From Candidatus Marsarchaeota archaeon (GTDB lineage: Archaea; Micrarchaeota; Micrarchaeia; Micrarchaeales; Micrarchaeaceae), in assembly GCA_023485505.1 (NCBI GenBank), contig JAMCZN010000041.1, positions 1 through 23,857 on the forward strand: a DNA stretch of 23,857 nt, written 5' to 3'. The notes under the pieces were generated by a model. That model made no database searches and had not been told where the DNA came from. It saw only the letters and a list, made by a program, of their open reading frames with translations. The translations under genes were made by a program, and so were the position numbers. This document shows positions 1 to 14,203 of the stretch, in pieces. The stretch's first letter is position 1. Each line of letters opens with the position of its first letter.

Positions 1-956
1 ACACCACCATTAGATATTATTCTTTTCGTTATAAGTCCTCTGTCTTCACATATTCGTATGAAAAGTAGTCTATTAATAAGTACATAGATTGATTCCTTAC
101 AAAATACCTGCTTATTCTCCTCCTCCTTATCATCTGGTCTGTTTGAAAGTGCTTTCCAAATATAATATCCTGAAAATGTTGAAAATTTCTTATATCTGCC
201 CTCAGTTTTTAATTCGTACCTTGCTATCTCGGCAGCTTGCTTTCTGTTATCTCCATTATGTTTTTTCATTTCTTCTAATTCATCTTTAGTTTGTTTATAC
301 TGCGCATAGTTGGCATAATATTCATCAAACGCAGAATAGGTGTACTGGCGCAATATATCATTTGAGATGTAATTTAGTTGTTCTATAAGTTTATCAAAGC
401 CTACATCCTCTGCTACATCTATTTTAGCGTAATATGGATCAAAAATACCATATTTTGCTTCGCTCCATATCTGTTCTTTTGTTATGTTATTCAAAAAAAG
501 AATCTGTTCTGTTTCTTTTGTAGAAATTTTGCTTTCTGTTGTTCTCTTTGAATTTATAAGATTCAAAAAGTCTATATCAGATTTTAGGATTTTTTCTCTA
601 CCAGTAATCTCCCATAATATGAACCTGTAACCATTGGTAAGACCTACAAAATGTGTTGAAGAATCTGCATATTTACCTGCTTGATCCCGCCATGTTTGGG
701 CGTCTAAATTCTCTTTTGGCCGTTTTGTCTCTATTACAACTATACGATTTTTGTTTTCATCAAGAAGTGTTATATCTGTCCTACTACGTTCAAACGTGTA
801 GTCCGACCCTTCATATCCTAAAACGCCCTCTATCAGATATTTAGCTAGTCTTGGACTAAAATCATGCTCAAGCGAATCTATAGTTATCTCGCTGTTTATC
901 TTCTTAAAAGCGAGTAAGATTTTGTCTGTGAAACTTAAATCTTGTTTAGAAATCAT
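1..956 (-). CDS. Restriction-modification enzyme, N-terminal part. It has an HsdR_N/Mrr-like PD-(D/E)xK nuclease domain and a helical spacer, and is probably type IIG or type ISP. The 3' end runs off the window.
   Basis: This gene is absent from the supplied ORF track because it has no stop codon within the window; I translated it by hand. ATG lies at 956-954 on the minus strand, and at least 318 codons are open down to position 3. The N-terminus is MISKQDLSFTDKILLAFKKINSEITIDSLEHDFSPRLAKYLIEGVLGYEGSDYTFERSRTDITLLDENKNRIVVIETKRPKENLDAQTWRD. The DITLLDE...IVVIETKRP segment is a classic D-x(n)-(D/E)-x-K nuclease core of the HsdR_N/Mrr type. About 190 aa downstream is the motif INRLLFIRICEDRGLI. 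I recognise this as the conserved helix that precedes the gamma-class N6-adenine methyltransferase domain in type IIG/IIL enzymes (MmeI-like) and in BREX PglX. No Walker A helicase motif appears in the 318 aa, which argues against a type I HsdR. Confidence 0.6.
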   Translation of the reverse strand, partial: MISKQDLSFTDKILLAFKKINSEITIDSLEHDFSPRLAKYLIEGVLGYEGSDYTFERSRTDITLLDENKNRIVVIETKRPKENLDAQTWRDQAGKYADSSTHFVGLTNGYRFILWEITGREKILKSDIDFLNLINSKRTTESKISTKETEQILFLNNITKEQIWSEAKYGIFDPYYAKIDVAEDVGFDKLIEQLNYISNDILRQYTYSAFDEYYANYAQYKQTKDELEEMKKHNGDNRKQAAEIARYELKTEGRYKKFSTFSGYYIWKALSNRPDDKEEENKQVFCKESIYVLINRLLFIRICEDRGLITKRIISNGG

Positions 957-965
957 TTTGCCAAC

Positions 966-2045
966 CTATTCTAATTTCTTTTGCCCTACCTCCTCACCTT
1001 TAAATATTCCGCTTTTCCACATTTTCTCAACGAAATAGCTAGTTATTTCCTTCTCTGGTAATTCTTTCCAGACAACTTTGTATTTGGTATTTTCAGTAAC
1101 CTCGCCGTTATCCCTTTCTACCAAACCCATCTTGACAAAGTTTTCCATAGCTGTTGAAACAAGTTGGGTTTTAAACTGAATTCTTTCTGTAGCACCGTTG
1201 CTATCTACTATATAAGGCAATGAGTAGAGCTTATTTAGATACTTAATTAACTTTGACAATTTTACTTCAAACACATTTTCTCCTGTCCTATACCACTCCA
1301 AAATTATATCCTTATCAGATTTTTTATTTATTTCAGGAAATATTTGCGCCCATAATAGTTGCATTACATATACTATCGGAGTTGCGCCATTATTCTCTTC
1401 AAATATTTTAAACATTCCAATTTCTTTATCTAGTTCTCCTCTGTAATAACTTATTTTTCCTCTCTTTATCTTATTTTCAATTTCACTAGAACTCAATGTT
1501 CCCCATTCATATGATATTCGTATCTGTTCCGTATTAGCTAATGGTTCAACAACATATACTAAAAGAATAAATTTTCGCTCAAATGCGCTTTTTTGTTTAT
1601 CAAGGAAATCAAATTTTAATACAGCCATTGCATCGGTACATCCCTGTGGAGCAAGTAATATTAAATCATGATTCTTTATGCCGATATTAGAAATGTTAAT
1701 ATCATATGATTTTAGTTGCTTAATTAGGTCATTTTCTATAAACGTCTTTAGATAATCTTCTTCAGAAACAAAAATTTGCCTGTTATTAGGATTCGGCAGC
1801 GACCTTTTGGCATCTCCAACTATTGCAAATTTTGGCAATTTTATTATTATATCTGGAGTAGGCGAATTTTTGTCATTTGGAATAATCCTTCCGCCAAAGT
1901 AAAACTCGCCACCTTCACTTTTTGTGAATTTGTACAAAGCAATAAGAGATTTTAATAAACGCTGGTAATTGTTTATATCAGCAGCTATCTCTCTCTTCTT
2001 GCTTTCCAAGCCCTCTGGATCTTTATCAGACATTTTGAATTTCAC
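966..2045 (-). CDS. Hypothetical protein of 359 aa (356 aa from the ATG at 2033). Candidate PD-(D/E)xK nuclease-fold protein, second gene of the island operon.
   Basis: Long ORF in the AT-rich island. The track start at 2045 is GTG. An ATG at 2033-2031 overlaps the stop of the upstream gene in the string ATGTCTGA, which indicates translational coupling. The segment SPTPDIIIKLPKFAIVGDAKRS fits the PD-x(12)-(D/E)xK spacing. I recognise no other family signature. Confidence 0.55.
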   Translation of the reverse strand: MKFKMSDKDPEGLESKKREIAADINNYQRLLKSLIALYKFTKSEGGEFYFGGRIIPNDKNSPTPDIIIKLPKFAIVGDAKRSLPNPNNRQIFVSEEDYLKTFIENDLIKQLKSYDINISNIGIKNHDLILLAPQGCTDAMAVLKFDFLDKQKSAFERKFILLVYVVEPLANTEQIRISYEWGTLSSSEIENKIKRGKISYYRGELDKEIGMFKIFEENNGATPIVYVMQLLWAQIFPEINKKSDKDIILEWYRTGENVFEVKLSKLIKYLNKLYSLPYIVDSNGATERIQFKTQLVSTAMENFVKMGLVERDNGEVTENTKYKVVWKELPEKEITSYFVEKMWKSGIFKGEEVGQKKLE

Positions 2046-3105
2046 CCTCGTAATTCTCAGTTAGAAAAGACAGCAATCGGTTAAATACTGTTGGAGTAAC
2101 TTGTGTCTGCGGTATTATATGTATTTCATTTGAAGCGGGAACCGTTATATCAAAAGAACCTCCAGAAACGTAATCCAATACATTCAATTCTATAAAAAAT
2201 TTGTTTAAAGAAATTATTGAATACCCCCATTTTGGCAATCCCTTTATTACTTCAATAAATTTAAGCGCATCATTTTCTTCTAGGAACAACTCACTCTTCA
2301 ATTTTATCTTTATAGGTTTTGCAACTACATCATCAAAACTTCTTGCCCTATTTTCTAAGGTGTTTTTATATAGTTCATCATTCCATGTTTTCAATAACTC
2401 TTCTAAAACAAAGACAAAGAACTTGGCGAAACCCATATTTCTATATGAGAATATCCCGTCCCTGCCTATCCTTAGTTTACTAACCGCATCTGACTCGGAT
2501 TTTCCCTTTAGATTAACTACGATGCTATCTACCCACATATGTTCACTAACAGCGTTCAAAAACAAGTCGGAGTAAGGAGTCTTAGCAAAACATAGCCTCG
2601 TTTCTTTTTTGCCGTAATATCTCTTGACAACATAGCGTTGGGCTTCTATGTCCGTCTCGGTTGTCTTTTCTATGCGTCCAAGTAGCTTTAATAGTTCTAC
2701 AGAGCTAAAGAATGTTCTTGATATTAAAGGATAGTAACTTCTGAAAAATGCCAATTGTACATTCTTAAAGTCTATATGTTTTGCATTACTAAGGATTATT
2801 CCAATAGGCCACTCTTTTAAATTTATCAACAAACAGCTTGGTTCTAAATCTTTCCCATATAATTTTAATCTGAATTTAAATATATCGCCAATTTCACTTT
2901 TATCAATTTCGAAAGTTGTACCGTCAAACGCAGCTGGCATGTGCTTTTTGAACAACTCTGCCATGCTATATCTTTTATCATAAGTGCAGATTGCAACTTT
3001 AGGAGGAGTACCGCTAACTTCACCAAATAGGCGTTCTATCGTAATAAAAAATTTACGCTTATTCTGATCTAGCATGCCGTATTCTTCTATTTTCATTGAA
3101 ACCAT
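2026..3105 (-). CDS. Hypothetical protein of 359 aa, first gene of the island operon.
   Basis: ATG at 3105-3103. An AT-rich TATA-like stretch lies 25-35 nt upstream on the minus strand, consistent with a leaderless transcript. The ORF is 1080 nt and uninterrupted in roughly 30% GC DNA, which is unlikely by chance because AT-rich sequence is stop-codon rich. I recognise no family. Confidence 0.5.
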   Translation of the reverse strand: MVSMKIEEYGMLDQNKRKFFITIERLFGEVSGTPPKVAICTYDKRYSMAELFKKHMPAAFDGTTFEIDKSEIGDIFKFRLKLYGKDLEPSCLLINLKEWPIGIILSNAKHIDFKNVQLAFFRSYYPLISRTFFSSVELLKLLGRIEKTTETDIEAQRYVVKRYYGKKETRLCFAKTPYSDLFLNAVSEHMWVDSIVVNLKGKSESDAVSKLRIGRDGIFSYRNMGFAKFFVFVLEELLKTWNDELYKNTLENRARSFDDVVAKPIKIKLKSELFLEENDALKFIEVIKGLPKWGYSIISLNKFFIELNVLDYVSGGSFDITVPASNEIHIIPQTQVTPTVFNRLLSFLTENYEGEIQNV

Positions 3106-3206
3106 TCTAAATTAGGTTGACGCTATTCTTTAATTCTAAGCATTTAACGCTCTTATGCCTTTCTGATTATGGTTGGCTCTATCATTAGGCACTTCTCAAT
3201 AAGCCT

Positions 3207-3247
3207 GATTGGACTCCTTGATGCTATTTACAAGCCGTAGTCCAATC
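3207..3247. repeat. Inverted repeat of 9 bp with a 23-nt spacer (GATTGGACT ... AGTCCAATC) in the intergenic region between the AT-rich island and the GC-rich RNA locus.
   Basis: Positions 3207-3215 are the exact reverse complement of 3239-3247. Confidence 0.5.
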
Positions 3248-3344
3248 CAATTATTGCCCCGATTAGGTTTATAATCTCGTTCCCGCTTCCGGATTTGCGC
3301 CTAGCCATAGTAGTATATCTCAGCAAAGAATTATCAGTTTTATG

Positions 3345-3650
3345 GTAAGGAAACCTATAATCCTTAAGCTACGCCAACACGTTCATCCTACAGATTCACG
3401 TGGGCTAGCGTCCCCACGGACAGCAAGCTGGCAACCCAGCAAGCGGCTGATTTTGCGGGGGGTCAAAATCAGCCTTAACGCCGCCATGTCTTACAAGGTA
3501 GCCGCGGCAGCCGTAGCCCGCCGTGCGACACCAAAGGTGTCTTCTGGGCGGGCGGAGGCTGCGTGGCGGGGTTTCTCTACACGAAACTCTACATGGACGG
3601 CTATAATATTGATGTGCAGTCATGTAGAGAGAAAATAGCCTCATTTTGAG
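3345..3650. ncRNA. GC-rich, highly structured non-coding RNA locus of about 300 nt. Class is unassigned; SRP/7S RNA or RNase P RNA are the size-compatible candidates.
   Basis: GC content jumps to over 60% for about 280 nt between AT-rich flanks. The only ORFs here are two overlapping low-complexity frames on opposite strands, which is typical of GC-rich RNA. Extensive nested complementarity is present. An 11-bp perfect hairpin spans 3445-3474. A 6-bp hairpin spans 3527-3541. A long interrupted helix pairs 3481-3486 with 3564-3569, 3508-3512 with 3557-3561 and 3516-3522 with 3547-3553. The CAGCAAGC octamer is duplicated at 3421 and 3437. CTCTACA occurs three times (3575, 3587, and inverted at 3622). 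A TATA-like box at about 3313-3320 and a T-rich tract after a hairpin at about 3636-3680 suggest plus-strand expression, but strand is not proven. Confidence 0.4.
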
Positions 3651-3700
3651 GGCTTGAGAGAGATGTGGTTTTTACAAACATTTCATAACGTAATATTCAA

Positions 3701-4861
3701 TCATGGCTGCATCCAGTCAATCTCATAATACTCGTATTCGCTCTTTGGAAGGCTAATGCGCCTTATCTTGTAATAGGTCACTGCAGTTTCCCTGTCGGCT
3801 ATGGCAACAATGAGCTCCAGCCTGTGCTCCTTCGCTTCGTTTATTATGGCCGAAAGCTCGGCTCCGCCTATGAACTCGTCTTCGCTTATGGACAGCATGG
3901 CGAACCTTGGCCTGTCCTTTCCGGGGGTCTCTATGTTCCCATCCTTCCTGTGGTACAGTACGAAATCCATCAGAAGCTTTTTCTTCCGGCTTTTTCCCGG
4001 GATGGCAAGGATGAACGTCTTCCTTACGGAATGCGCGACCCTTATGGCGCGTGCCCATTCTGAAATGAGGAGCTTAGCGTCCCTTGGGAACACGTGTATG
4101 ACGTGCTTTGAATGCACCCAGTCTTCGTTTCCCCTTATTGGCCTTGCGCCTGGAAAATAAATCCTGAAATGCGTGCCGAACTTGAAGCCCGTCTTCACAA
4201 CATAGCCCTTGCTCCTCCAGTCCGCATAAACCTGATACAGCTTTGGAAAATCCTTTCGTCTCTTTGTTGCCATTTTTATTATCTCCGATTTGCTGTAGTT
4301 CCTTACGTTTAGGGACTTGTTTTCCATAAGGAAAATGGTTTCGTATGCGTCAAGCTTGTTTAGTATGCCCCTTTCGCTTATCTTGTAGGTGCCGTATTGC
4401 CCGAACCATTGTTCGCTATATATCTCCTTGCCCTTTTCCGAATCGTCCACTATGCACATAAGGTCTTCGGGAAAGAATAGCCCTTCAAGCCTGTAGTTTT
4501 TGAGCTTGAATTGCGATGATGGGTAACCCTTTATTGGGGTTTTGTTCCCATCCTTTGACAATTGGATCTCTTCTGGCTTCTTTATTATCAGTCCCCTGTC
4601 CCTCCAGTCCTTGTATGTGAAATATCGTGCCATTAGCTTTCCGGAAAATCCGAACCTTTCGACAAGCCCGTTGAAGTGAAGTTTTTCCCCGTTGTCTCTG
4701 CATTCGGCATTTCTGACGTCAATAAGGTATAGGGCTTCTTCTGGGCTGAGGTGCAAAGTCCCATCTTTAAGAGTGCCTATATGGCCCTTCATCAGTATGT
4801 CTTTTGACGACTGGTCAGTAACGACTACCCTGTTCGTATCTCTTATTTCAAGTAAAAGCAA
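3701..4861 (-). CDS. endA: tRNA-splicing endonuclease EndA, 386 aa, multi-unit fused form.
   Basis: The N-domain motif HLSPEEALYL is present. The catalytic-domain motif is LYQVYADWRSKGYVVKTGFKFGTHFRIYFPG ... HSKHVIHVFP. An upstream degenerate copy, ARYFTYKDWRDRGLIIKKPEE, indicates an internal duplication with one pseudo-catalytic unit. The C-terminus reads LELIVAIADRETAVTYYKIRR. The track start is TTG. At 386 aa the protein is larger than the roughly 180-aa alpha4 and roughly 290-350-aa alpha'2 forms. Confidence 0.8.
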   Translation of the reverse strand: MLLLEIRDTNRVVVTDQSSKDILMKGHIGTLKDGTLHLSPEEALYLIDVRNAECRDNGEKLHFNGLVERFGFSGKLMARYFTYKDWRDRGLIIKKPEEIQLSKDGNKTPIKGYPSSQFKLKNYRLEGLFFPEDLMCIVDDSEKGKEIYSEQWFGQYGTYKISERGILNKLDAYETIFLMENKSLNVRNYSKSEIIKMATKRRKDFPKLYQVYADWRSKGYVVKTGFKFGTHFRIYFPGARPIRGNEDWVHSKHVIHVFPRDAKLLISEWARAIRVAHSVRKTFILAIPGKSRKKKLLMDFVLYHRKDGNIETPGKDRPRFAMLSISEDEFIGGAELSAIINEAKEHRLELIVAIADRETAVTYYKIRRISLPKSEYEYYEIDWMQP

Positions 4862-10413: not shown

Positions 10414-10539
10414 CGCCAGGGTAGGGATTTGAACCCTAAAGCCCCGAAGGGCACCGGTTTGCCTGTTTCGCATCACTAATCAGCTCTTGATATTTTAAAA
10501 ACTCAAGACCGGCGCATTACCGGATTCTGCCACCCTGGC
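10414..10539 (-). tRNA. tRNA-Ser(UGA) with a 42-nt intron at the canonical 37/38 position.
   Basis: I folded the cloverleaf by hand. The acceptor is GCCAGGG/CCCTGGC with discriminator G73. The anticodon stem is CCGGT/ACCGG and the loop is CT-TGA-G. A long variable arm (GCCC-UUCG-GGGC) marks it as class II. The T-arm is TAGGG-TTCAAAT-CCCTA. The intron forms a canonical bulge-helix-bulge. Exon CTTG (positions 32-35) pairs with intron CAGG. The two 3-nt bulges are AG|T and CA|A. An intron-internal UUUU/GAAA helix is also present. Confidence 0.85.
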
Positions 10540-12415: not shown

Positions 12416-14203
12416 CTAGGAAGTTACCGTCGACTTTGGCAGATTCTTCTCAGTGCTCGTCTCCGTTTGGCCCGTTCTCAGGAAGCTTTTTACCAATTCT
12501 CCCACGGTCTTGCCGGCGTTTGCCGGATTTGTGAGTATTGATATCAGTTTGTCCTGGGTTTCTGGGCTCAGTCCGGCTACCTGCAACTCCTGCGCAAGGG
12601 CTATGCCCTGTTCAGGTCCGACCAGTATCTCACCGAGCAATCCGCCGCTTGTCAGCTTTTGCGGGTTATCGGTAATCAGGTTGATGTTCGCGCGTCCTGC
12701 CACCTGTGCCATCGCTTCTGCCCTCTTCAGATTGACGACCTGCCATGCATCAATCTTCTTGGCGTCAAGCGCCGCATGTCCGCCGCCAGTGGCATCCATG
12801 TATTCCTTCTGCGCCTTGGCCTGCTCCCTGGTGCCGTTTGCTTGCCCGACCAATTTTGCCTGGATGGCTTCTCCGTCCGCTTTACCCATTGCGGCTATCT
12901 TGGCGGCTTCTCCCTCTCCCTCCGCTCTTGCCCTTGCTCCGGCGCCTTCTCCCTCTGCCGTAAGCCTTGCCTTCGTTCCGGCTCCTTCCAGTTCTGCCTT
13001 CTCTTTCGAGGCCTGTGCCTCAAGGATGGTCTGCTGCTTGTTGGCCTCTGCCACCAGAATCTTTGTCCTGTTGTCCGCTTCAGCCTCCTTTATTCTCTTT
13101 TCCTTCTGGGCATCGGCATTGGTTATGGTCACCGTCCTGCTATAGTCGGCAGTACCCGTTTGCAGGGCCCTTTCCGCCCCTACCTTCTTCTCGTTGGTCT
13201 CCTTCGTTGCATCCTGCACCGCCTGTTCCATCTGCTGCTTTGCGACGCCAAGTTCCTTATCCTTCTGGAAATCCCTCTTTCCGGCCAGTTCTGAATTCTC
13301 GGCCTCTGCTATCTCAGCCTCCTTTTTCTGGGTTGCCACTACGACCCTCGCTTCCTTCTCCTGTTGTGCGACTATCTTCTTCGTATCTGCATCAACCACT
13401 GCCGCTCTCTGCCTTTGCAGGTTGTCTATGATCACGCTCCCGTCAGCATCTTTTATTACGGGAACCTCCACGTTTACAAGCTGCAATCCCCACTTAGGGA
13501 ACAGGTCTCTGACCTCCTTCTCCACCGCATGCTGCAGCTGATCCCTGTTCTTGAACAGGTCCATTATCGTGTGCTGCATTGCCGCTGTCCTGATGATTGA
13601 TTCGACCATTACCCTGAAGTCGTCATCGATCTCAATCCTCAGCCCGTTTGAATTGGCTCCCGGAGCGTTGCGCCCTTCATATGGCTCCCTGCTTCCAGTA
13701 ATCGTCGTCCTTTCTGCCGCCATTATCGGGTCTACCACGTGGACGAACGCCACCACATCGCACAGGAATTCTGCAAAATCCTTGTCGTTCAGTTTGATGT
13801 TTACTGCGCTTACCCTGAAGTTCGAAAGAGGTACGGTTATCGTTTTCTGGAATTTGCCGATCTTTGGATACACGGCGTTTGGAACCCTGTCCCTTTCACC
13901 GTAAACCGTGTGCTTTTCGTGGCTTTCCGGATCCTCCACCAGCACCGGGCGTTCTACTTCAACACCGGTTTCTGCGTCTTTCGTCTTCTTTGTTATCAGG
14001 AAGTACTCCTTTTTCCTTGCAGAATACTCGTGTACTCCGTGTCCGTCCGATACTACCACTGCGACGTTTGCTGGAATAACGTGTTGCCAACCAAACATAA
14101 TCTTAAGTCTGCTGGGCTGAACTATCCAGTTATCTTGTGCTAGCTTAGCAGATGCATCCTCCTGTGCATCGTTTCTGTTTTTTGTGTTGCTTTCTGTGGT
14201 CAT
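12416..14203 (-). CDS. Flotillin-like SPFH/band-7 domain protein with an EA-rich coiled-coil tail.
   Basis: An SPFH core (IPANVAVVVSDGHG...) is followed by about 250 aa of Glu/Ala/Lys/Gln-rich heptad repeats (AEGEGAGARARAEGEGEAAKIAAMGKADGEA), as in flotillin/YqiK. Length is 595 aa. No N-terminal transmembrane helix is apparent. Confidence 0.7.
   Translation of the reverse strand: MTTESNTKNRNDAQEDASAKLAQDNWIVQPSRLKIMFGWQHVIPANVAVVVSDGHGVHEYSARKKEYFLITKKTKDAETGVEVERPVLVEDPESHEKHTVYGERDRVPNAVYPKIGKFQKTITVPLSNFRVSAVNIKLNDKDFAEFLCDVVAFVHVVDPIMAAERTTITGSREPYEGRNAPGANSNGLRIEIDDDFRVMVESIIRTAAMQHTIMDLFKNRDQLQHAVEKEVRDLFPKWGLQLVNVEVPVIKDADGSVIIDNLQRQRAAVVDADTKKIVAQQEKEARVVVATQKKEAEIAEAENSELAGKRDFQKDKELGVAKQQMEQAVQDATKETNEKKVGAERALQTGTADYSRTVTITNADAQKEKRIKEAEADNRTKILVAEANKQQTILEAQASKEKAELEGAGTKARLTAEGEGAGARARAEGEGEAAKIAAMGKADGEAIQAKLVGQANGTREQAKAQKEYMDATGGGHAALDAKKIDAWQVVNLKRAEAMAQVAGRANINLITDNPQKLTSGGLLGEILVGPEQGIALAQELQVAGLSPETQDKLISILTNPANAGKTVGELVKSFLRTGQTETSTEKNLPKSTVTS

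Follow-up and report, generated by a model that had tools for sequence, protein, structure and literature searches.

A GC-rich folded region and its homologs

The structured non-coding element described here occupies positions 3345-3650 of a 23,857-nt contig (JAMCZN010000041.1, assembly GCA_023485505.1) of a Candidatus Marsarchaeota archaeon, placed by GTDB in the Micrarchaeota; this contig at its full length is referred to below as the window. The GC content of the element peaks at 62.5% (3400-3599). An initial annotation, made from the sequence alone, had described a GC content above 60% within AT-rich flanks, which holds for the peak and for the left flank (32-41%) but not for the right flank, the endA gene, at 40-53%. 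Folding of 3345-3650 on the + strand gave a minimum free energy (MFE) of -130 kcal/mol, compared with -97.6 +/- 4.6 for 100 dinucleotide shuffles (z = -7.1); the corresponding value for the - strand was z = -5.8.

Among 80 syntenic Micrarchaeota endA loci, a homolog was present only in L077 (our own numbering of loci), 2.8 kb from endA, and 78 of the 80 had no element within 4 kb. A metagenome scan using the arms of the longest helix (H6, see below) produced 24 matches, two of which, L088 and L094, were true homologs. The remainder were hairpins in other contexts (L087/L102 and L084) or GC-rich bacterial coding DNA, and the matches of a fuzzy search with the same arms, which fell inside the radA coding sequence, were likewise rejected. 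The L087/L102 look-alike is a GC-rich hairpin cluster in an AT-rich bacterial S10 operon, where it separates rpsJ from rplC (L087 7715-7850; L102 10369-10672); it has the same module (stem, GUA, GCCCGCC...GGCGGGC, GGA, stem) with a covarying basal stem and is not in Rfam. Compensatory changes were already evident in the early homologs L077, L088 and L094, in which the homologous region was longer on both sides than 3345-3650.

We built a covariance model (R1) from the window, L088 and L094, and examined pairing in a covariance-model alignment of 11 copies (A5) and in an independent MAFFT alignment (A6). In A5, 92.2% of the cells were paired, compared with 30-47% when the partners were slid, and 31 of the 61 pairs had changed on both sides; none of 500 shuffles matched the observed pairing, double changes or covariation score. 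Across H3, H4 and H6 together, 22 of 37 positions were compensatory. The helix-maintaining changes that generally characterize structured RNAs were therefore present, and the comparison with related loci that the initial annotation had proposed revealed strong compensatory pairing across homologs.

All helices are given on the + strand. In the 5' hairpin (UAAGGA/UCCUUA, 3346-3366; helix 1 of A5), 91.5% of the cells were paired and both sides had changed in 2 of 6 pairs. Its conserved UCCUU marks the 5' end of the conserved backbone; the helix reads AAGGG/CCCUU in L107 and L122, and in the L077 group UCCUU appears by eye to face a downstream AAGGA instead. This hairpin competes with a weakly supported candidate closing helix, P1 (GGAAACC 3349-3355 / GGUUUCU 3570-3576), which is part of the MFE fold and reads GGAGACC/GGUCUCU in L088, one compensatory pair despite a 170-nt insertion. 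Hairpin H1 (3373-3405; GCC-AA-CACG...CGUG-GGC; helix 2 of A5) was 86% paired, and 4 of its 8 pairs had changed on both sides. Two tetraloop hairpins follow. H2 (3410-3421) has a 4-bp stem and a C(C/A)AC loop; in A6 it was 95.5% paired against 14-43% with slid partners, three of its four pairs had changed on both sides, and its covariation score was reached by 0 of 500 shuffles. H3 (3427-3440; GCUGG-CAAC-CCAGC), the second CAAC hairpin, had 5 of 6 compensatory positions among 14 homologs, its cells comprising 64 Watson-Crick, one G.U and one A.C pair.

H4 (3445-3474) is the perfect 11-bp hairpin that had been noticed earlier (GGCTGATTTTG 3445-3455 / CAAAATCAGCC 3464-3474) and carries a G-rich loop; in 13 homologs all 128 of 128 cells were Watson-Crick, and 6 of 11 positions were compensatory. 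The most conserved part of the element, detected by R1 in every homolog, is the long three-block helix H6 (3501-3567), which reads GCCGCGGCAGCC/GUA/GCCCGCC/GUGC, GACACC-AAA-GGUGUC (3527-3541) and UUCUG/GGCGGGC/GGA/GGCUGCGUGGC; the long interrupted helix enclosing GACACC-AAA-GGTGTC was thus correctly recognized at the outset. Compensatory positions in H6 numbered 5 of 6 in the apical stem, 4 of 7 in the middle stem and 2 of 7 in the basal stem. Its internal loop (GUA 3513-3515 / GGA 3554-3556) is purine-rich (A30 G27 U14 C3 across homologs), and readings of this loop as a K-turn or a bulge-helix-bulge were discarded on inspection because the register does not fit. The apical loop, C-AAA-G in the window, is mostly C-GAA-G or C-GUA-G in the homologs.

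Recurrent features were the twin 4-5-bp CAAC-loop hairpins joined by UUUAAG, a hairpin of 9-11 bp whose loop is a run of G (or C), the long helix with its purine-rich internal loop (GUA/GGA or a variant of it) and the 5' UCCUU. The variable features were an extra three-way junction (L088, L094 and L114), the 170-nt insertion (L088 and L094) and the loss of H4 in L125 and of H2 in the L077 group.

Two open reading frames (ORFs) overlap the element, one of 98 aa at 3342-3638 (+) and one of 79 aa at 3405-3644 (-). A small protein would account for the open frames and for the start MVR(K/R)P(I/V)ILKLRQH that the window and L088 ORFs share. However, neither ORF had a Pfam match, the frame of the 98-aa ORF shifts between conserved blocks in L088, the L077 core contains no ORF of at least 60 aa, no gene was called over the element in L105, L109, L114, L122 or L125, and the stem substitutions are compensatory. 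The changing frame and the lack of a Pfam match indicate that the region is non-coding, in line with the earlier dismissal of these ORFs as junk, and we give a coding function virtually no chance.

Rfam 15 covariance models were applied at the gathering score and at E <= 10 to the window and to L077, L088 and L094. At the gathering score the whole window yielded three tRNAs and nothing at the element; at E <= 10, the interval 3100-3900 gave only a noise-level microRNA match, and the three homologs showed no family match, only tRNAs and noise-level microRNA. Together with the folding energy, these scans bear out the description of a folded element belonging to no catalogued RNA family.

The initial annotation had also proposed a divergent RNase P or signal recognition particle (SRP) RNA of a reduced DPANN lineage. 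The element resembles these RNAs in its size (~230-300 nt), its GC-rich helices, its archaeal host and the possible closing helix, and it contains a string with an 11/15 resemblance to the CR-V motif of RNase P RNA. On the other hand, the suggested scan with the models RNaseP_arch, RNaseP-T and Archaea_SRP found no match at E <= 10 in any of the four loci. The conserved P4/CR and helix-8 motifs were not found in the element, and a long SRP-type helix 5 was not seen in the predicted or consensus folds. The CR-V/P4 3' strand ACAGAAnnnGGCUUA is not matched; the look-alike, TCAAAATCAGCCTTA, exists, although at 3463-3477 rather than 3461-3475 as first reported, and is the 3' arm of H4, which in L077 reads CAAAACGCCUAU (GCAAAACGCCUAU at that position).

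Association with a tyrosine integrase in small integrative elements

In L077 and L088, the element lies just past a tyrosine recombinase gene that directly follows tRNA-Glu, and in L094 it adjoins cas1-cas2-cas4. The neighbouring recombinase carries the Pfam domain Phage_integrase (PF00589) and belongs to a family with 666 close homologs; the element is therefore probably common in Micrarchaeota. Contigs of eleven family members, ten plus L130, were sampled. R1 gave significant matches in L077, L088, L106, L107, L114, L117, L119, L122, L123, L124, L125 and L130, and weak co-linear matches in L105 and L109. It detected the element in every family locus that extended past the integrase, one structured element per locus, on the strand opposite to the integrase gene in a gene-free gap of 380-570 nt. 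The order of the locus was constant: tRNA, integrase, repeat tail, structured element (opposite strand) and variable defence cargo, the integrases adjoining tRNA-Glu, tRNA-Val, tRNA-Gln or tRNA-Ala.

The integrase and the non-coding module were the only invariant parts of these elements. A conserved protein partner besides the integrase was considered and rejected: the ORFs on the 5' side of the structured element are unrelated between loci, and a pair of small ORFs between the tail and the integrase is optional. This pair was seen at L106 6890-7482, L119 4867-5378, L130 1112-1539 and L111 5890-6081; its first member has 86-87 aa and the start MQTQ..HYPRLDTVLMVEE, and its ~95-aa member, presumably RelE/ParE-like judging from its motifs, had no PADLOC match. 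The metagenome contigs L070, L088, L094, L111-L113, L118 and L120 end inside the integrase or the structured element or shortly past them, as would be expected where a conserved backbone gives way to strain-variable cargo.

The element was not found in 75 other endA loci or at tRNA-Glu sites without an integrase (L075 and L079). Its absence from 78 of the 80 syntenic loci and from these empty sites, its position in elements bounded by attachment (att) repeats with which it moves, at four tRNA genes, and the gain and loss of whole hairpins are at odds with a housekeeping RNA. A divergent RNase P or SRP RNA is accordingly extremely improbable, and this conspicuous GC-rich fold of a DPANN genome would otherwise be liable to mis-annotation as one. 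A full-text literature search returned no account of a comparable element, either in Micrarchaeota or linked to tyrosine recombinases; the covarying non-coding module with a tyrosine integrase is new and previously undescribed.

In L130, perfect 22-bp direct repeats of the tRNA-Val 3' end enclose a complete element, 3,849 bp long, which comprises the integrase, both small ORFs, the structured element and cargo of PD-Lambda-3_B/HEPN-like type. It thus has both marks of a tRNA-integrating island, an integrase beside a tRNA and a far repeat of the tRNA 3' end. T-arm copies were also present 3.7 and 5.9 kb downstream in L106 and L109, respectively. An intact element is ~3.7-6 kb long and consists of the tRNA 3' part (att), the integrase, sometimes the toxin-antitoxin-like ORF pair, the repeat tail, which ends in an inverted repeat, the multi-hairpin element of 180-380 nt, the cargo and, at the far end, the repeated tRNA 3' end. 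Across loci, the cargo comprised cas1-2-4, OLD/GajA-type nuclease, PD-Lambda-3/HEPN-like, Eco57I/MmeI-type restriction-modification and toxin-antitoxin genes and HerA-like ATPases. A CRISPR or tracrRNA function, suggested by cas1-2-4 beside the L094 copy, was dismissed, as cas genes are one cargo among many and neither cas genes nor a CRISPR array occur in the window.

Extra copies of the tRNA T-arm (GGGTTCAAATCC) follow tRNA-Glu at distances of 25 and 67 nt, within what is annotated as the 5' end of the integrase gene (L077 6861 and 6903; L105 6031 and 6076; L106 6034 and 6076; L107 6034; L125 3912 and 3954). They are probably scars of repeated integration, in which case the true integrase start lies further downstream.

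Three related loci illustrate the exchange of parts. From the last ~37 nt of tRNA-Ala rightwards, L122 and L123 have the same sequence across integrase, element and cargo, but the DNA on their left sides shows no relation. Between L122 and L124, identity is 100% over the host flank, tRNA, integrase, tail and 3' two-thirds of the element; across the 5' domain of the element it falls to 0.90, 0.78 and 0.70, and the cargo is unrelated. H4 (L122 5101-5150) reads GGCUGAUUUUG/CAAAAUCAGCC in L122 and GGCUUGUUUUG/CAAAACAAGCC in L124, a fully compensated double change. Since the two integrases are identical, this difference places a recombination boundary inside the structured element.

Small tRNA-integrating islands with a tyrosine integrase and variable cargo include the tycheposons of Prochlorococcus and mobilizable genomic islands. 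The Micrarchaeota elements resemble them in the integrase directly after a tRNA, the partial tRNA repeat at the far end (22 bp in L130), the occurrence of copies in tandem or in varied contexts, and the variable, mostly defence-related cargo. They differ in their DPANN hosts, their length of 3.7-6 kb and their invariant parts, the integrase and a large structured module; we know of no such module in tycheposons or mobilizable islands. Together, the loci make up a family of minimal mobile islands that carry defence genes in Micrarchaeota and have in common only a tyrosine integrase and a large covarying non-coding module.

The tail occupies 3570-3664 (+) in the window and is nearly identical in L114, L088 and L122-L124. 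It contains CUCUACA at 3575-3581 and 3587-3593 and inverted at 3623-3629, the AT-rich segment CUAUAAUAUUGAUGUGCAGU and a GAGAGAAAAUAGCC...UUUUGAGGGCUU block. Over the whole window, CTCTACA is not enriched above chance (4 observed, 2.3 expected; 19 of 100 shuffles reached 4); its local clustering was seen again in the homologs. The initial annotation had listed all three copies, with the inverted one starting at 3622 instead of 3623, and had taken them for a conformational switch. The inverted copy can indeed pair with either direct copy, forming two mutually exclusive hairpins in the window. However, ACGAGGGAAAA takes its place in L088 and L122-L124, so that the competing hairpins are not conserved, the number and orientation of the copies vary (3 to 6 between loci), and the motif itself is different in the tRNA-Gln-type element L119, i.e., it changes with the integrase lineage. 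A switch is hence very improbable. The copies are confined to the tail, beside the integrase 3' end, and the motif tracks the integrase lineage, a pattern that suggests protein-binding sites instead. The possibility that they are arm sites of the integrase was rejected, as no copies occur near the att ends, including the tRNA end.

The linkage also raises the possibility that the element is an RNA cofactor or guide of the integrase, comparable to bridge or seek RNAs, whose loops would pair with the tRNA 3' end and donor DNA, or an RNA directionality factor. The one-to-one pairing with the integrase, kept strictly at four different tRNA targets, the multi-loop architecture and the status of the two as sole invariant parts would suit such a role, and the bridge/seek RNAs of IS110/IS1111 elements, like the present putative RNA, are structured and encoded in the non-coding end of a mobile element, beside the recombinase. 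Those elements, however, encode DEDD/serine-type transposases and not a tyrosine integrase (PF00589), and guide complementarity of at least 8 nt was lacking here: in 12 loci, matches or complements of that length between the element or its tail and the 3' half of the local tRNA numbered 0-2 per locus, against ~0.6 expected, at non-homologous positions. Moreover, the core is highly similar in tRNA-Glu and tRNA-Ala elements (L114 and L122) and so does not track the target, and to our knowledge classical tyrosine integrases need no RNA. We therefore regard a guide as highly unlikely.

The window contains the backbone without its integrase. Positions 3250-3664 (+), covering the stub of a divergent ORF, the structured core and the repeat tail, are 81% identical over 457 nt to L114 6417-5961 (E = 6e-121). 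This homology ends at ~3664, just short of the terminal inverted repeat and integrase of L114. Beyond that point L114 has a perfect inverted repeat of 12-12-12 layout (UUUCUCUACAUG...CAUGUAGAGAAA), followed by the integrase, whereas the window enters the 3' end of endA. The window copy thus has no integrase, terminal inverted repeat or tRNA end; it has become joined to the 3' side of endA and borders a low-GC island, the GC content stepping at about 3250 from 32-35% (1-3249) to 41-53% in the rest of the window. Given this step and the restriction of the L114 homology to 3250-3664, the segment is very probably a relic of the invariant non-coding backbone module of small integrative elements of Micrarchaeota. 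As its partner integrase is gone, the copy is probably non-functional or decaying.

RNA or folded single-stranded DNA

We favour the explanation that the window carries a relic of the backbone module and that the module is a putative integrase-linked non-coding RNA, with an overall probability of roughly 0.45. The element would act as a folded single strand, read on the + strand of the window. The A-rich unpaired positions on this strand (A 312, U 222; p = 0.001) and the purine-rich internal loop of H6 point to it as the folding strand. That the element is a non-coding RNA transcribed towards the integrase gene has, in our estimate, an even chance. The role that we favour, tentatively and at less than even odds, is control of the integrase or of excision; it could operate through convergent (antisense) transcription that crosses the tail and reaches the 3' end of the integrase gene, or through binding of the integrase or of another protein that also recognizes the tail repeats.

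Several observations weigh against this RNA reading. The regulatory role is one that we purely infer. The mean difference in folding energy, 3.9 kcal/mol, favours the integrase strand (p = 0.06), and the counts of G.U and A.C pairs do not separate the strands. No promoter motif is conserved at a fixed distance, and in several loci an ORF on the same strand ends at the 5' end of the element. The H4 loop is C-rich and roughly reverse-complemented, with the stem unchanged, in 3 of 13 lineages (L094 2075-2102, L114 6185-6212, and L119), and G-rich in the other ten; this looks like a hairpin flip, a DNA-type event. Only 2 of 424 helix cells were G.U pairs (419 Watson-Crick and 3 A.C), compared with 22 of 323 (6.8%) in the tRNA stems of the same loci (Fisher p = 6e-7), the stems having been delimited by eye with a bias against terminal wobbles; the covariance-model alignment gives about 2.5-4% G.U. 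Such scarcity would be atypical of an RNA family and is in keeping with DNA pairing; it cautions that covariation by itself is no proof of RNA. With G.U pairs nearly absent and the strand left unfixed by the folding energy, the initial description of the locus as unmistakably RNA was too strong.

The same data raise the possibility of a folded single-stranded DNA cis site of the mobile element, formed when the + strand becomes single-stranded. It might serve as a complementary-strand or transfer origin, such as a single-strand origin (sso), a single-strand initiation site (ssi) or an origin of transfer (oriT), or as a recombination substrate recognized by its structure, as are attC and the folded attP of CTX phage, with the tail repeats and the AT-rich segment acting as protein-binding iterons. 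In addition to the nearly pure Watson-Crick pairing and the flipped H4 loop, the equal folding energy of the two strands accords with DNA, as do the C-GAA-G and C-GUA-G tips of H6, the GNA triloop being exceptionally stable in DNA. Being one of two invariant parts of a very small element would suit a cis-acting site, and short direct and inverted repeats flank the AT-rich segment of the tail. Against this, a gene for Rep (HUH), a relaxase or another protein generating single-stranded DNA is not conserved, and none was recognizable in the complete L130 or in other examined cargo, although a helper could supply one in trans. No free viral or circular form was found in scans of viral contigs with three patterns, two of which had no match and the third two matches inside ORFs without a model match. 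The twin CAAC tetraloop hairpins and the A-rich and multi-way junctions are more RNA-like. A DNA site is a serious rival, and the main one, to the RNA reading, although we rate it as the less likely of the two.

Known single-stranded sites offer partial parallels. The sso and ssi of rolling-circle plasmids and single-stranded DNA phages are cis-acting, strand-specific, multi-hairpin sequences of 150-300 nt with nearly all Watson-Crick pairing and conserved loops. The element is like them in its size, its multi-hairpin form and its near-total Watson-Crick pairing, and unlike them in that it has no recognizable Rep gene and no sign of single-stranded intermediates. As in integron attC sites and the folded attP of CTX, a tyrosine recombinase is combined with a hairpin of Watson-Crick pairs only, beside which variable cargo starts, and H6 has the attC layout of stem, unpaired spacer, stem and variable tip. 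Archaeal integrons have been defined by an IntI-specific domain and at least two attC-type hairpins less than 4 kb apart between cassettes (PMC9668308). Our elements, in contrast, have a multi-hairpin domain in one copy per element (as counted with R1, not with an attC model) rather than an array, lack the IntI signature (31.9 and 28.9 bits for the integron integrase model TIGR02249, cut-off 265) and use the tRNA 3' end as their demonstrated att site. A XerA/dif system was also considered and rejected, the integrase scoring far below the NCBIfam XerA cut-off.

Rfam includes two bacterial integrase-associated structured motifs that came from comparative genomics, int-alpA and STAXI, whose function is unknown; a single-stranded DNA function has been suggested for STAXI. 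The present module shares with them a conserved, covarying non-coding structure tied to the integrase of a mobile element, but it has no Rfam match, is archaeal, much larger and multi-domain, and lies downstream of and convergent with the integrase gene.

A broader proposal is that the element is an obligatory nucleic-acid partner of the tyrosine integrase, either an RNA that controls or directs integration, excision and cargo exchange or a folded-DNA substrate for cargo swaps. We consider this improbable; if true, it would be a new coupling of a structured nucleic acid to a tyrosine recombinase, in DPANN archaea. Whichever the element proves to be, a regulatory RNA, a cofactor of the recombinase or a DNA fold serving as an origin or recombination site, the answer would reveal how symbiont archaea with reduced genomes move their defence genes.

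Flanks of the window copy

The cargo side of the relic begins with a 26-codon stub (3228-3308, - strand), which translates as MARRKSGSGNEIINLIGAIIGLDYGL followed by a stop codon and corresponds to the divergent first cargo ORF; its counterpart in L114 has 132 aa and begins MARRKSGSGNEIIDLIGAII. The low-GC island to the left (1-3249) carries two tandem ORFs of 359 aa on the - strand, at 966-2045 and 2026-3105, neither of which had a match in Pfam, NCBIfam or PADLOC. A further ORF seen by eye possibly leaves the left end of the window; the single frame that was translated is not open. The island may represent novel defence cargo.

The genes neighbouring the element in the window are archaeal and encode a 386-aa tRNA-splicing endonuclease (endA) and RadA. 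The endonuclease (3701-4861, - strand) is 60-71% identical to proteins of Micrarchaeota metagenome-assembled genomes; its N-terminal and catalytic domains were each matched in two stretches, and this multi-unit single-chain form is conserved across Micrarchaeota. At 10414-10539 (-), Rfam detected a tRNA gene with a 45-nt intron that ARAGORN missed, consistent with an archaeon whose splicing endonuclease has a broad specificity. A 39-nt tandem repeat (2.2 copies) at 12902-12988 lies inside a 595-aa ORF at 12416-14203 (-), in the region of highest GC content within the window.

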